Of a stretch of DNA of 64,000 nucleotides, positions 6,813 to 11,830 are shown one piece after another. The stretch lies in the IMG/VR virus record IMGVR_UViG_2778261631_000002; one strand, given 5' to 3'. The position numbers were made by a program, and so were the translations under genes. The stretch is from a virus. Its lineage: Duplodnaviria; Heunggongvirae; Uroviricota; Caudoviricetes. Position 1 is the stretch's first letter, and every line of letters begins with the position of its first letter. The notes beneath the pieces were generated by a model. That model searched no databases. It was not told the DNA's origin and worked only from the letters and a program-made list of their open reading frames with translations.

Positions 6813-7175
6813 TCAGCTTTCGTTGGCATTTAACTTCGTCTTTGCTTTCTCCACCAGCAACTTCCAGATGCCTATTTCATTAGCAGCCGCCTTGATGGCG
6901 GCATAAAAAGCATCTTGCTGATCGTAACGCTGGATCTGTTTTTTCAGTTTTGCCTCCACCAATTTAATTTCATTACGTGCTTTCTGAAGCCGCATCACCG
7001 CCCGGTTACATCTGTTCTTGTATAGCGTGTTAATCTCTGACAATTGCTTTAATTTACCAGCCTGACTGCGGATTATCGCCTCCCTGGCTTCTGCCGTGCG
7101 TCTCATCTGATCTCTTAAGAGTTCACCGTTTTCGATAATTCTTTCAAGGTGTTTGATGTGATCTGCAACTCTCAT
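6813..7175 (-). CDS. Hypothetical coiled-coil protein (120 aa)
   Basis: Last gene of a minus-strand operon; overlaps the upstream gene. Confidence 0.6.
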   Translation of the reverse strand: MRVADHIKHLERIIENGELLRDQMRRTAEAREAIIRSQAGKLKQLSEINTLYKNRCNRAVMRLQKARNEIKLVEAKLKKQIQRYDQQDAFYAAIKAAANEIGIWKLLVEKAKTKLNANES

Positions 7176-8470
7176 ACTTCACCCTCGCTTGTATCACCAG
7201 CGTCCACCAACGACAATAAAGCCCTGGCCATCTTATGAACCAACAGTGCATCAATAATGCCAAGCGTATGCCCCGGCTTAATGTTTAATGCTGCCTCAAG
7301 ATGACACCTTTCCAGACCGCTTTTCTCGGCTTGTTTATGATGATATGGCGTAATAACGTCGCCCAAAACACGGCTAATTCTTTCTCGTAATTGCTGGGTG
7401 CCAGCACACTTGATCGCTGTATCGTGGAGACGGTTAACCAGTTCGCGATAAACATGCGGCTTAATGCGGATACGTTCACCGGTGACGCCCTTTCCTGGCG
7501 CTGGCACCGAACTATCCGGAATATCCGGATAGTTGCCAGCCTCGTAAGCTACCCGCAGCCAGTGCATGAATGTTTCAGTGGACACACAACCACAGTCCAC
7601 ATCGATTTTCCCGCGTTGCTGTTCCAGCCATTGCCCAAAATCCAACCTGTAAGTCTTACTTTGGCTTACAGGTTGGCTACCCTGAAGCATGGCAGCGTGG
7701 CAGGCATACTCAACGCCCTTAACTGCATCTGCGCAGTAGTTATAGCGATTGCATTCCACTAATTTCCGTTTGAGTTTTTCAATTGCCTGCGCGACATCAG
7801 CCTGTATTACAGGAACTGGCGGAACGGCTGTTTGCTCTCGAACGTCATTAGTCGCTATCGGTTCTGCTGCCAACTGACTGGCATATTTGTTAATGGTAAC
7901 GATAAGCTCTTGCTCAGCCTCATCCAGACAATCACCGATACCTCGCCTGTCACCGTCAAAATCATCGAAATCGGCACGAATCTTGGCAACCTTCAGGATT
8001 GCGGACAACACCTCACTAGGAATTACCGGATAGTTGGTTGACGTTTCCGCGATTTCCCGAAAATTATTGGTTGACGAATTCTTGTTTTCCCGAAAGTTTC
8101 CGGACTGAAGCATGGCGGCGCGGCAGGCGTTCCAGCCATCTGCGTAACAATCTCTGTGTGTCTTGAAATATGTCACCGCCCTTGGTACATCGTTTACGTC
8201 TATTTCATCCGGCACAACCGGCGCAGGTGAGTCAGCATAAACAGGAATAACGTCCGGTTGCTCTTTATTGCTTTCATCCGTTAAAGCCCAGAATAATTTC
8301 CCGGCCGGATGTTTGAAAATATAAGCAACTGGTTCTGCTTCCAGCGATGCCAGAGCAATTCGTGCCAGTTCTTCCGCTTCTTCTGCTGGCAGTACAACGT
8401 TGCTACCAGGTCCGTATGTTTCGCGCCACTGCTTGATTGTCAGTAGTCGCTCTTTGGTAATAGTGATCAT
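7172..8470 (-). CDS. Hypothetical protein (432 aa) with an internally duplicated Cys motif
   Basis: Two copies of CYADGWNACRAAMLQSG / CADAVKGVEYACHAAMLQGS-like segments. Confidence 0.6.
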   Translation of the reverse strand: MITITKERLLTIKQWRETYGPGSNVVLPAEEAEELARIALASLEAEPVAYIFKHPAGKLFWALTDESNKEQPDVIPVYADSPAPVVPDEIDVNDVPRAVTYFKTHRDCYADGWNACRAAMLQSGNFRENKNSSTNNFREIAETSTNYPVIPSEVLSAILKVAKIRADFDDFDGDRRGIGDCLDEAEQELIVTINKYASQLAAEPIATNDVREQTAVPPVPVIQADVAQAIEKLKRKLVECNRYNYCADAVKGVEYACHAAMLQGSQPVSQSKTYRLDFGQWLEQQRGKIDVDCGCVSTETFMHWLRVAYEAGNYPDIPDSSVPAPGKGVTGERIRIKPHVYRELVNRLHDTAIKCAGTQQLRERISRVLGDVITPYHHKQAEKSGLERCHLEAALNIKPGHTLGIIDALLVHKMARALLSLVDAGDTSEGEV

Positions 8471-8982
8471 GCCGCGTTTCCTTCTTTCTTATTAACAATT
8501 ACACCGTCATATATTTCATTAAGGTGCCCTCTCAACTCCATGCGCCTTAATGCAGATAACATGTAATCGCATTCAACCTGCTTATTTCCAGTAAATGGCT
8601 TATCGTCAGGATTACCCCAACAGCAATTACCCTTGGGCCACCCATGTACTTTCCGTACTCTTCCGTTAACAACGTGAAGTAATCCCCAGCCAGGTGGTAA
8701 ATCCTCAATTGAAATAATTCCCGGCTCACTAATAAAGAATCGCCAGTCGCCCATTCCAAGAGACGGATTTTTACGAAAACGCTTTTTTCTATCTGCCAAC
8801 AAGTCAGCACGAGAACACTTCGCCTCTATCAGGCATGATGCTGAATTTCTGAATCCCATAGCATCTGGCTGTTCTCCGGTACTGGTTACAGCTATAAAGC
8901 GGTCATGAAAACAAACCTTGAACCCGTTGCGCTTAAGGAACTTGTACGCAATCTGACAGAGTTCGCGGTGTGTTAACGCCAT
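8467..8982 (-). CDS. Putative PD-(D/E)xK-family nuclease (171 aa)
   Basis: Motif ...QPDAMGF...CLIEAKCS... resembles the D...E-x-K restriction-endonuclease-like catalytic core. Confidence 0.5.
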   Translation of the reverse strand: MALTHRELCQIAYKFLKRNGFKVCFHDRFIAVTSTGEQPDAMGFRNSASCLIEAKCSRADLLADRKKRFRKNPSLGMGDWRFFISEPGIISIEDLPPGWGLLHVVNGRVRKVHGWPKGNCCWGNPDDKPFTGNKQVECDYMLSALRRMELRGHLNEIYDGVIVNKKEGNAA

Positions 8983-8983
8983 A

Positions 8984-9670
8984 TCACTCTCCTTTGATGC
9001 GAATGCCAGCGGCGCGGATTGCAGCGATGACTTCAGAAACTTTGTATGCCATTACCGTTTGGTAATCATCGTGAAAATCTGTTCGATGAAGCATGCTGCT
9101 ACGTTCCGGGAGCGATATTTCCCGAGCATCCAGTTCCTTAACGCGTTCCTCCAGTTCGTAGACCCTGCATTGTTCTCTATCATCAATCAGATATAACCCA
9201 AGACATTCGCTTTCTACCCAACCGCCAAAATCATGATCGTAACGCTCACATGAAAACTCACCGTCACCGTCCTTTGTTGGAATGGTGTAACTATCTAATG
9301 GGCCACCATATGTCGGCACATTCCCCAATGTTGGATGCTCAATCCACATGAAAAATGCACGTCCGGTTATTGGGCAAATATCTGGCCGCCATTGGTTACG
9401 AACAGCCTTGGTTTCGGATAATTCTTCAGCGTGTTGTTTTACTTCCTCAAGCTCAACTCTCAGCTTCCCAACCGTAAGAGCAATATCCTCGTTCTCCTGG
9501 TCACGGCGTTTGATGTATTGCTGGTTTCTTTCCCGTTCATCCAGTAGTGCCAGTGCCACCGATGGCGTGAACGCCATACGAAACGCCACAAAATTTTGAT
9601 GCATAGGTTCTGTTTCTACTGCAACTGCCGCATCTCGCAGTGCCTGATAGTCAATTGTCATTCTCGCCAT
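8984..9670 (-). CDS. Hypothetical protein (228 aa)
   Basis: ORF in an operon of tightly packed genes. Confidence 0.55.
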   Translation of the reverse strand: MARMTIDYQALRDAAVAVETEPMHQNFVAFRMAFTPSVALALLDERERNQQYIKRRDQENEDIALTVGKLRVELEEVKQHAEELSETKAVRNQWRPDICPITGRAFFMWIEHPTLGNVPTYGGPLDSYTIPTKDGDGEFSCERYDHDFGGWVESECLGLYLIDDREQCRVYELEERVKELDAREISLPERSSMLHRTDFHDDYQTVMAYKVSEVIAAIRAAGIRIKGE

Positions 9671-10302
9671 CCTTCACAGTTGTAATCACTACAGCCTTCA
9701 AAATCATATGGGCTGTACTGCCAGGTTATTTTTCCGCAATGCGGACAATTCCAACGCACCTTCCCGCTTCGCGACTTCTTTCTTCTGTTCTGCTCTTTCA
9801 ACCAGTCAGGCATGACCAAACCTGCGCCCTGAACCATTGTTCTGCGGTTAAAGTTATTGATATTGAACGTCCGACGCTTTGCTGCATCAGCAATGGAAAA
9901 TGGCAACCAAACTATTCCTGGTTCGTTTTTGTTGGCGACGCTAAAGATGGTCGCTTTACTGAAGTCATCTGTTGGCAATCCACCGTGTTGAAGCCAGTAA
10001 ACATCGTTGCCGTTCCAGCTACCTTTTTTGTAGGCCACATACGCAGTGCAATCTGACTCAATCAGGCTTTCTGTGGGGATGTACTGGCAATCAACGTGCC
10101 ACACAGCCATTGCATCCACGCTATCAGCGCAAACAGGCTGATCGATATCTCGTCCACAATTCCAGGCTTTTTGGGCTTCTTCCAGCGTGTAAACATGAGC
10201 GCGATCGATATCAGAACTGTAACCATTGCCGTTATGGCAATGGAATGAGGCGTTATTACCCACAGTTTCACGCAAGCACATCATGTAAAAGCGGTTATTC
10301 AC
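9658..10302 (-). CDS. Hypothetical protein with C-terminal zinc ribbon (214 aa)
   Basis: CPHCG...C..YNCEGW cysteine pairs near the C-terminus. Confidence 0.55.
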   Translation of the reverse strand: MNNRFYMMCLRETVGNNASFHCHNGNGYSSDIDRAHVYTLEEAQKAWNCGRDIDQPVCADSVDAMAVWHVDCQYIPTESLIESDCTAYVAYKKGSWNGNDVYWLQHGGLPTDDFSKATIFSVANKNEPGIVWLPFSIADAAKRRTFNINNFNRRTMVQGAGLVMPDWLKEQNRRKKSRSGKVRWNCPHCGKITWQYSPYDFEGCSDYNCEGWRE

Positions 10303-11225: not shown

Positions 11226-11252
11226 ATTTTCAGCTCCTGTGATTGATTGGAT

Positions 11253-11284
11253 ACATGCCGCGCCTTGCGGCATGTTTTTATTTT
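11253..11284 (+). terminator. Strong hairpin plus T-run (plus-strand sense) in the leader of the minus-strand operon
   Basis: ACATGCCGC-GCCTT-GCGGCATGT (9-bp stem) followed by TTTTTATTTT on the plus strand. Confidence 0.4.
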
Positions 11285-11307
11285 CACTTTCTCTGTTTTA
11301 AAAATCA

Positions 11308-11324
11308 ATATTTATTAGAGCAAT
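11308..11324 (-). promoter_or_regulatory. C1 operator (minus orientation) upstream of the 11225-6813 operon
   Basis: Minus strand ATTGCTCTAATAAATAT, 16/17 to consensus. Confidence 0.6.
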
Positions 11325-11830
11325 TATTGTTGATGGGGCAGCGCGTTTTCATACTCCCTGACCATTAACGTAAGCACGCCGTGCCTCCTGAAAACACGCG
11401 CCACTTCAATCTTATCTTCCAGCGCGAACGCGATTTTACTTAGACCAATTTTCTTAAGGAGATCAATCTTTGCTGGGCCGTCATTTCTGTCATCGGTGGC
11501 AGGACGCATAGATAGCAAAGGCTCAGCCCCGTTTGTTACGTACTTCCGCAGCCAGGCTCGTGTTTTATCCCTTGCGATCTCACAGCGCCCGGTTACAAAC
11601 CAGACCGTGTAAACGTTAAATAACTGGCGCACAATATCAATAACTGGAGTTATGGGAGTATCAGTGTCACAGGCGAGATTAAACTCGTTCCAGTCCTTTG
11701 TTAATGCACCTTTACCTGGTGGCGGAAGAAAATGCAGTCTGTCTTCAGTTGCCTCTGATATTGTTCCATCAATATCAACTATGACGATATACGGACGTTC
11801 CTGGTGTGCGTGTTTATTGAAAATACTCAA
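11324..11830 (-). CDS. HAD-superfamily phosphatase-like protein (168 aa)
   Basis: N-terminal IVIVDIDGTIS (DxDGT motif I) and downstream K/D motifs. Confidence 0.55.
   Translation of the reverse strand: MSIFNKHAHQERPYIVIVDIDGTISEATEDRLHFLPPPGKGALTKDWNEFNLACDTDTPITPVIDIVRQLFNVYTVWFVTGRCEIARDKTRAWLRKYVTNGAEPLLSMRPATDDRNDGPAKIDLLKKIGLSKIAFALEDKIEVARVFRRHGVLTLMVREYENALPHQQ

Follow-up and report, generated by a model that had tools for sequence, protein, structure and literature searches.

The region analysed here, positions 6,813-11,330 of a 64,000-nucleotide stretch of Caudoviricetes DNA (IMG/VR record IMGVR_UViG_2778261631_000002; hereafter the window), is 99.9% identical over its full length to phage P7 (AF503408/NC_050152, 86668-91185, reverse strand). 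It is the 'hea' operon of P7, and the operon, its operator and its open reading frames (ORFs) are already in GenBank. Downstream of the operator, AF503408 lists the minus-strand coding sequences upf86.8, upf87.4, upf87.6, upf88.3, upf89.0, upf89.5 and upf90.8, plus an eighth, the 64-aa upf90.5, nested in upf89.5 in another frame (Table 1). The first seven follow an ORF for a 28-aa hydrophobic peptide (pep28) and adjoin one another with junctions of -8, -8, -13, +1, -4 and -4 nt. All seven match PHROG families at E values of about 1e-44 or lower and are thus real genes. A first-pass annotation, made from the sequence alone, had counted eight overlapping genes; the tight coupling that it described stands, and seven genes are supported, eight being reached only by adding the nested upf90.5, for which no support was found.

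Table 1. Features of the hea operon, its flanks and the separate VRR-NUC/DksA-like unit (window coordinates).
Feature	Position	Strand	Description
C1 operator Op(hea)	11308..11324	-	ATTGCTCTAATAAATAT, one mismatch to consensus ATTGCTCTAATAAATTT; overlaps pap stop codon
Predicted sigma-70-type promoter	11295..11323	-	-35 TTGCTC (11323-11318) inside operator, 17-nt spacer, -10 TAAAAC (11300-11295)
Putative intrinsic terminator	11253..11285	+	Hairpin stem followed by T-run TTTTTATTTT
Leader hairpin	11253..11275	-	9-bp GC-rich stem; RNA fold -20.4 kcal/mol, z = -3.9; identical in P1
pep28	11139..11225	-	28-aa hydrophobic peptide ORF MNTAFKIIMAAIYFWLFSITFGGIVAHG; GGAG ribosome-binding site 8 nt before ATG
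upf86.8	10548..11129	-	193 aa; ASCH fold, YqfB type (GxKTxTxR); related to N-terminal part of P1 PmgT
Junction motif, upf86.8/upf87.4	10552..10565	-	GGGGCAACCAGTGA
upf87.4	10295..10555	-	86 aa; CX9C...CPFC four-cysteine site, zinc-ribbon-like; PHROG 4030 (E 5e-44)
Junction motif, upf87.4/upf87.6	10299..10312	-	GAGGCAACCAGTGA
upf87.6	9658..10302	-	214 aa; N-terminal ~170 aa, basic linker, C-terminal C4 zinc ribbon
upf88.3	8984..9670	-	Ead/Ea22-like: N-terminal segment and coiled coil, own C-terminal domains
upf89.0	8467..8982	-	171 aa; PD-(D/E)xK fold, closest to MmcB-like/SPO1766 family
upf89.5	7172..8470	-	432-aa EaA-like mosaic; last ~140 aa correspond to P1 PmgU
upf90.8	6813..7175	-	120 aa; predicted coiled coil; P1 PmgV counterpart; PHROG 4403
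45-aa ORF	6600..6737	+	MNAFFQFLSAFLDAPIISQILAIILIIVLILLLRSVKNGIMHWLT, very hydrophobic; convergent with the operon, antisense to upf91.3/upfM
IS903 copy	~4935..5991		About 0.8 kb past operon end, between upf91.x small ORFs and upf93.6/upf94.2
Op(sht a/b)	13400..13465		Lies between Op(hea) and the upf81.0-upf81.2 unit
Op(hdm)	16166..16182		Four mismatches
upf81.2	16189..16767	-	P1 PmgM homologue; VRR-NUC nuclease domain; under Op(26), outside hea operon
upf81.0	16770..16982	-	P1 PmgL homologue; DksA/TraR-like zinc-finger protein; same unit as upf81.2
Op(26)	17073..17089		Operator of the upf81.0-upf81.2 unit

The near-consensus C1 operator that had been noticed upstream of these genes is the exact site of the deposited protein_bind feature 'phage repressor C1 Op(hea)' in AF503408, and differs at one position from the P1-type, 17-bp asymmetric C1 consensus. 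Its counterpart in P1 is OpmgT, formerly Op88, which the P1 record lists and whose sequence agrees exactly with separate Op88 entries. Ten operator-like sites with three or fewer mismatches are present in the window, compared with 0.35 expected from shuffled sequences. At the sequence level the operator overlaps a predicted sigma-70 promoter, as in C1-controlled operons, and the hexamers and spacing of this promoter are those of the predicted P2pmgT in the P1 record. From established knowledge of P1, C1 bound to Op(hea) in a lysogen would block the promoter, its -35 hexamer lying within the operator. On infection or induction the promoter would become active and yield a single mRNA with a stable 5' hairpin, to be translated through the 28-aa putative membrane peptide and then through the seven genes, which are probably translationally coupled because of their 4-13-nt overlaps. 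An improvised regular expression built from one P1 late promoter (LPhot) found no match in the operon, a result that is not evidence of absence of a late promoter. The T-run follows the hairpin stem on the plus strand only, which points to an intrinsic terminator for antisense transcription towards pap; this terminator may insulate the conserved morphogenesis genes from the cargo carried in the variable slot.

The ORF of pep28, a peptide already picked out in the first-pass annotation, has a good ribosome-binding site and shows 100% identity with its counterparts in 18 other phage records and in P1, whose record leaves it unannotated. It is also found in 873 plasmid records, 198 of them conjugative, and the record of phage SJ46 carries a 44-aa version as a 'membrane protein'. 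Among P7, P1 and the IncF plasmid pH0063, the sole variable site is the synonymous third position of an Ala codon. Such a small, very hydrophobic and strongly conserved product with a good ribosome-binding site could be the toxin of a type I toxin-antitoxin pair, with the convincing plus-strand terminator directly upstream, in antisense orientation, ending an antisense RNA over that site. We consider this highly improbable: pep28 matched no family, known small-toxin families included; no sigma-70-like plus-strand promoter was found between 11100 and 11250; the 5'-truncated remnant in pH0063, in which the upstream sequence has been replaced by IS1, gave no support for a functional pair of pep28 and antisense RNA there; and the conservation of the peptide may merely reflect that of the operon leader.

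Upf86.8, the product of the first full-length gene, has an ASCH/PUA-like beta-barrel fold together with the characteristic octapeptide, in agreement with its earlier description as ASCH-like. Comparison with solved proteins gave values of 11.8 for 3s9x (an ASCH domain protein), 11.0 for 9kyf (Escherichia coli YqfB, an N4-acetylcytidine amidohydrolase; 23% identity), 10.7 for 2z0t (PH0355) and 9.9 for 1t62 (EF3133). The segment GNKTQTRR (residues 23-30) aligns to GRKTITIR of YqfB from strain MG1655, DARAE143G aligns to HAEQE74N, and the final strand VWVIEF aligns to FYVIEF. K25, T28, R30 and E143 of Upf86.8 thus correspond to YqfB K21, T24, R26 and E74, the catalytic residues of that enzyme, with Lys21 as the base; ASCH proteins of both the GKTR and the GKER type lower tRNA N4-acetylcytidine when expressed in E. 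coli (bioRxiv 10.64898/2026.02.27.708502). All four are invariant in a nine-sequence alignment that includes YqfB; across 40 diverse relatives (alignment A3) K25, T28 and R30 are again invariant and E143 is kept in at least 90%. A weak match to Pfam ASCH was obtained for 25 of these 40 relatives (best E 2.4e-4). A word-indexed search had returned only relatives of more than 82% identity, so the family was defined by exhaustive search of representatives, which shows it to be very large (44,418 clusters at 50% identity, E <= 1e-3). Upf86.8 therefore resembles YqfB, a member of the GKTR octapeptide subgroup, in its G-x-K-T-x-T-x-R motif, its Glu74 equivalent and its C-terminal VIEF strand, and differs in being phage-encoded, presumably C1-repressed and, at 193 aa compared with 103 aa, longer by insertions totalling about 90 aa. 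In RefSeq (NC_050152) the protein is called 'DNA primase', a name that the ASCH fold contradicts. From the model and the alignments we predict that Upf86.8 is a catalytically competent YqfB-type amidohydrolase acting on N4-acylated cytosine in nucleoside or RNA.

The proposal of a PD-(D/E)xK-like nuclease in the middle of the operon holds for Upf89.0 at the level of both fold and motif. An AlphaFold model on the family alignment (predicted local distance difference test 84.9, predicted template modelling score 0.79) shows the order alpha-beta-beta-beta-alpha-beta, with D40 just before beta2, E53 on beta3 and K55 directly after it. E37, D40, E53, K55, R58, D60, D64 and K67 are invariant in 30 relatives (59-88% identity), and the family comprises 324 clusters at 90% identity, from Enterobacterales and beyond. 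An MmcB-like protein is the closest structural neighbour, and the best BFVD matches include phage proteins that bear the name 'MmcB-like'. The best PDB profile match of the family is 3dnx_A (SPO1766), aligned over ...D...IECKSSRADFQAD at an E value of 0.26, which is not significant. Upf89.0 shares with SPO1766 and MmcB-like proteins the motif D...(I/L)E(c/a)KxSRxDFxAD and differs from them in an extra conserved C-terminal helical region with GMGDWRF/GWGLL motifs; sequence profiles give no significant link. PDB entry 3DNX presumably represents Pfam PF06319. The Pfam MmcB model hit none of 30 family members even at E <= 10, Hjc models gave sub-threshold hits in 12 of the 30 relatives (best E 0.018), and a search of the literature on MmcB, DUF1052 and SPO1766 found nothing relevant. 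Phage records with the nuclease core (residues 4-113) number 665 and include virulent Ackermannviridae (CBA120 orf107, Det7) and Vibrio phages; some of the virulent-phage records give its name as 'DNA repair protein'. In a few homologues the nuclease is joined to an Ead/Ea22 N terminus or to that of Upf89.5, so that either the nuclease domain can serve as an interchangeable C-terminal domain of Ea22-type proteins or the ATGA overlap has been lost. The nuclease fold contradicts the RefSeq name 'minor tail protein'. With the catalytic motif intact, Upf89.0 would belong to the MmcB-like branch of PD-(D/E)xK endonucleases and cut DNA in a metal-dependent manner.

These two putative enzymes allow a bolder reading, in which PmgT/Upf86.8 would act as a phage-encoded 'eraser' that removes N4-acetylcytidine, or some other N4-acyl mark, from host tRNA or RNA or from a defence-related nucleotide. 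The MmcB-like nuclease would be a further early effector, working independently and directed at the DNA of the host or of competitors, and the operon would be a small arsenal of enzymatic effectors for host takeover or counter-defence and not neutral cargo. As the first full-length gene after the leader peptide of a repressor-controlled operon, upf86.8 would then serve to reprogram host translation or to disarm a host response. We regard this reading as quite unlikely.

A second nuclease of the VRR-NUC family and a TraR/DksA-like zinc finger had also been proposed, in what was taken to be the next C1-controlled unit. Both assignments are borne out. Residues 77-179 of Upf81.2 match the solved VRR-NUC domain 4qbl_A (E 8.1e-17), the protein belongs to PHROG 5702 'Holliday junction resolvase' (6e-27), and its score with Pfam VRR_NUC is 21.2 bits, 2.6 below the cut-off of 23.8; relative to 4QBL it has an N-terminal extension of ~75 aa, and RefSeq already names its P1 homologue PmgM 'VRR-NUC domain-containing protein'. 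Upf81.0 matches PHROG 54 'DksA-like zinc-finger protein' (E 1.6e-12). The proposed location is wrong, since Op(sht a/b) and Op(hdm) intervene and the pair lies under Op(26). Both nuclease assignments, Upf89.0 and VRR-NUC, thus survive structure- or profile-based tests, and together they raise the possibility of a DNA recombination or repair module, in which phage DNA that is branched or damaged would be processed early by the MmcB-like nuclease, alongside a VRR-NUC resolvase. The structural kinship of Upf89.0 with SPO1766 and with proteins named MmcB-like DNA repair protein, the weak Hjc/AHJR-like profile hits, the confirmed VRR-NUC domain and the presence of the Upf89.0 family in virulent phages would all fit. 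Such a module would nevertheless explain one gene in eight; no recombinase, exonuclease or single-stranded DNA-binding protein was found in the operon; upf89.0 is dispensable in many otherwise identical operons and absent from P1; and the VRR-NUC gene belongs to a different unit, three operators away. We therefore hold this explanation to be very doubtful.

Two of the remaining proteins carry conserved cysteine sites, as expected from their earlier description as zinc-ribbon proteins, and are predicted to bind metal through four conserved cysteines in each family. In Upf87.4, C6, C16, C69 and C72 are invariant in six sequences down to 27% identity, and there is a weak Pfam hit to DUF6980. In Upf87.6, C186, C189 and C204 are invariant and C209 is kept in at least 90% of 32 relatives, which reach Acinetobacter; recurring weak Pfam hits among these relatives (each in up to 5 of the 32) are nearly all to zinc-ribbon or zinc-finger families. 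The name 'putative tyrosine protein phosphatase' given to upf87.6 in the original record was rejected, C22 of the HCxxGxxY motif not being conserved. Both proteins probably bind nucleic acid or a host protein. Upf88.3 matches Pfam Ead_Ea22 (PF13935) over residues 6-87 (E 4.4e-17; 63.4 bits, compared with a cut-off of 27) and falls into PHROG 250, and its C-terminal 140 aa match other PHROGs. Ea22 proteins have a common N terminus and coiled coil and interchangeable C-terminal domains (PMC10834534), an architecture that Upf88.3 fits; those of lambda and Shiga toxin (Stx) phages are described as tetrameric and pro-lysogenic (PMC10834534; PMC7093339). Upf88.3 would be an Ea22-type coiled-coil oligomer with C-terminal domains of its own. 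Upf89.5 maps to 18 PHROGs, each on a different segment, and appears to be a chain of EaA-type modules; its full arrangement is found only in P7, whereas individual segments are present in phages of the Stx, rV5/phi92-like and Klebsiella groups. The duplicated Cys motif that had been seen in this protein is present, C..AC(R/H)AAMLQ followed by NYP(V/D)IP occurring twice, with weak similarity between the copies (BLASTP E 0.04); a domain duplication was rejected in favour of a short motif repeat. Upf90.8 has only weak Pfam hits, all of coiled-coil type.

The genes of the operon are independent cassettes, and most of them also occur in lambdoid (Stx) prophages, in the early-left ea/exo-xis region. 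The whole of 6813-11330 is covered by P7 alone; SJ46 covers 67% and other P1-like phages 34-61%. Among 467 phage records that match the region most are Stx-converting, and hundreds of Stx-converting prophages share window ~7800-10300 (7807-10313) at 94-98% identity. Cassette exchange was surveyed in 80 viral contigs encoding Upf87.6 at 97% identity or more, onto which the other P7 proteins were mapped. In these loci upf87.4 and upf89.0 are each present or absent, and there are several Ead/Ea22 alleles (43-100% identity) and several ASCH alleles (about 40-100% identity); roughly one locus in two has neither pap nor the peptide nor the ASCH gene and lies outside any P1-like context, on a lambdoid-size contig. 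The junctions share a 12-mer core, GGCAACCAGTGA, which was counted 95 times in the fetched loci and leads in every case into an ORF that begins at its GTG. It codes for the ...ATSE C terminus of the upstream protein and provides the upstream stop codon, a Shine-Dalgarno sequence and the GTG with which the next gene starts. Four to five gene families lie on its downstream side, namely those of Upf87.6, Upf87.4 and Ead/Ea22 together with two further small ORFs; at least six families are represented by upstream ORFs ending in ...EATSE. This motif is probably a recombination site for cassette exchange. A reusable junction and neighbours of near-identical Upf87.6 that vary freely argue against a single multi-subunit system, which we rejected. 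Base composition does not set the inserted cassettes apart.

The left border of the slot is fixed. In pH0063 the pep28 remnant lies directly downstream of hsdR of a type I restriction-modification (R-M) system whose other flank is phd-doc, and the P1 entry reports this relationship for the EcoDXXI and R124 hsd loci as well. Homology of pH0063 to P7 and P1 stops four bases past the pep28 stop codon, so that pep28 marks the border. A complete R-M system can thus occupy the slot from pap/pep28 to phd-doc, and this slot has also moved into conjugative plasmids. In JL22 two genes, one for an adenine methyltransferase and the other a small ORF, stand in place of upf87.6. Beyond the operon end, the IS903 copy is a further sign that the region tolerates insertions. 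The 45-aa ORF on the opposite strand is 96-100% conserved in P1, SJ46 and JL22, and is annotated in SJ46 and JL22 and left out of the P1 and P7 records.

A methyltransferase and an R-M system in the slot suggest a site for defence and counter-defence cargo, and P1-like phage-plasmids often exchange defence genes (PMC10879196). The operon could accordingly be an anti-defence island, its early genes neutralising restriction or other immunity, with the nuclease or the ASCH protein destroying a defence signal or nucleic acid and the zinc ribbons inhibiting effectors. Early, repressor-controlled expression would suit this role, as does the high cassette turnover, typical of arms-race genes, and the orphan methyltransferase of JL22 and the type I R-M system of IncF derivatives show what the slot can carry. 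No operon protein matched PADLOC at E <= 0.1, a collection of defence systems that is no test of anti-defence; the published accessory-gene screens that were consulted name none of these families; and the occurrence of the Upf89.0 core in many virulent Ackermannviridae and Vibrio phages fits general DNA metabolism equally well. On this balance an anti-defence island is unlikely.

At the same position P1 has, in order, pap, OpmgT, two predicted promoters, pmgT, pmgU, pmgV, upfM/N/O, hot, lxr and humD, and like the hea operon of P7 its pmgT-U-V operon stands directly after pap and before upfM/N/O-hot-humD. The operators differ by one base, and the promoter hexamers, leader hairpin and 28-aa ORF are identical. 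The first gene encodes an ASCH protein in both (Upf86.8 is 47% identical to PmgT residues 1-232), residues 294-432 of Upf89.5 are 84% identical to the PmgU frame (P1 7118-7555), and Upf90.8 is 96% identical to PmgV. P7 has ~3 kb that P1 lacks, consisting of four genes (upf87.4, upf87.6, upf88.3 and upf89.0) and the opening two-thirds of upf89.5. The P1 sequence runs with that of other P1-like elements, at 97% identity, as far as position 7184 of the fetched P1 locus, near the 3' end of the ASCH allele, and then jumps, at ASCH codon ~232, to the equivalent of window 7547, codon ~308 of upf89.5. This jump from an ASCH gene into an EaA-like gene marks P1 as a deletion derivative: PmgT is an ASCH protein cut short and extended by an out-of-frame tail, and PmgU is what remains of the C-terminal part of an EaA-like protein. 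Among 54 P1-like phage-plasmids, pmgT-humD is one of eight highly variable regions ('variable region 8'; PMC9603915), and pmgT, pmgU and pmgV of P1 are non-essential for lytic growth by CRISPR interference and deletion (PMC10695390). The names 'pmg' (putative morphogenetic) and 'hea' imply morphogenetic, head-related functions, and the operon does lie among the morphogenesis operons of P1 and P7 (sht, hdm), being named accordingly. That reading is scarcely credible given the dispensability of the P1 homologues, the want of resemblance of any operon protein to a structural or assembly protein, the occurrence of the same cassettes in the early-left accessory region of lambdoid siphoviruses with unrelated virions, and the nuclease fold behind the one 'minor tail protein' label.

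Taken together, the hea operon is probably the P7 allele of P1 Op88-pmgT-pmgU-pmgV: an accessory (cargo) operon, non-essential and repressed by C1, in the hypervariable slot that extends from pap to hot/humD in P1-like phage-plasmids, built from independent cassettes that include predicted enzymes and likely to have a tuning role. By analogy with the exo-xis genes of lambda, it would most likely tune host physiology and phage DNA and RNA transactions early after derepression, and no core phage function is expected of it. The structural part of the first-pass annotation, a C1-controlled set of tightly coupled genes with an ASCH-like, two zinc-binding and a PD-(D/E)xK-fold protein, agrees with this account, apart from the VRR-NUC gene, which lies elsewhere and not in an adjacent unit; a role of the operon in host takeover, anti-defence or recombination is speculative.

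Several points weigh against this interpretation. AF503408 itself states only that Op(hea) is 'predicted to regulate' the hea operon, and the enzymatic predictions for Upf86.8 and Upf89.0 are founded on conserved motifs and AlphaFold models. None of Upf86.8, Upf87.4, Upf87.6, Upf89.0, Upf89.5 and Upf90.8 passed a threshold in Pfam, NCBIfam or PADLOC: Upf86.8 hit no Pfam model and falls below the gathering threshold of ASCH (PF04266), and Upf89.0 had no hit in any of the three. PDB sequence searches with Upf86.8, Upf87.6, Upf88.3, Upf89.0 and Upf89.5 returned nothing significant, with no hit at all for Upf88.3. The searches yielded no fold or function for the first 170 aa of Upf87.6, for the greater part of Upf89.5, for Upf90.8 or for the 28-aa peptide. 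Free shuffling shows that the genes can work apart, not that cooperation never occurs, and the exo-xis analogy covers the Ea22-like gene only, whose C-terminal domains differ from those of lambda Ea22. Rfam yielded no family within window 6000-12000, and the papers that were searched assign no role to the operon proteins.

The variability and dispensability of the locus have already been published, and our findings overturn no current view. New here are two fold-level assignments with named catalytic residues, the conserved zinc sites of two proteins, the cassette junction motif and the reading of P1 pmgT and pmgU as deletion scars. Although it belongs to two classic model phages, P1 and P7, the operon has kept placeholder names (pmg, upf, hea) for twenty years. 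The intact catalytic residues named in Upf86.8 and Upf89.0 open the way to concrete and cheap experiments, and their reach goes beyond P7, the same gene families being widespread in Stx-converting prophages of enterohaemorrhagic E. coli and the nuclease occurring also in virulent Ackermannviridae. The anatomy of the slot, with a fixed left flank ending at the 28-aa ORF, 12-bp junctions and a methyltransferase or type I R-M system as alternative contents, helps in understanding gene flow between phage-plasmids, prophages and conjugative plasmids.

Among known systems outside the P1 group, the exo-xis/ea genes of lambdoid phages (Ea22, EaA and Ead of lambda, P22 and Stx phages) offer a close parallel. 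The control differs: P7 hea is under a P1-type C1 repressor on a plasmid prophage, whereas the lambdoid ea genes are under lambda pL/N. Within the proteins, the C-terminal domains of Upf88.3 have no sequence relation to the solved C-terminal domain of lambda Ea22, and Upf89.5 shares modules with EaA- or DUF551-annotated proteins while itself having no DUF551 domain. The likeness lies in the Ead_Ea22 match of Upf88.3, which is above the Pfam threshold, in these shared modules of Upf89.5 and in the character of the lambdoid genes, which like those of the hea operon are highly mosaic, non-essential accessory genes, transcribed early.

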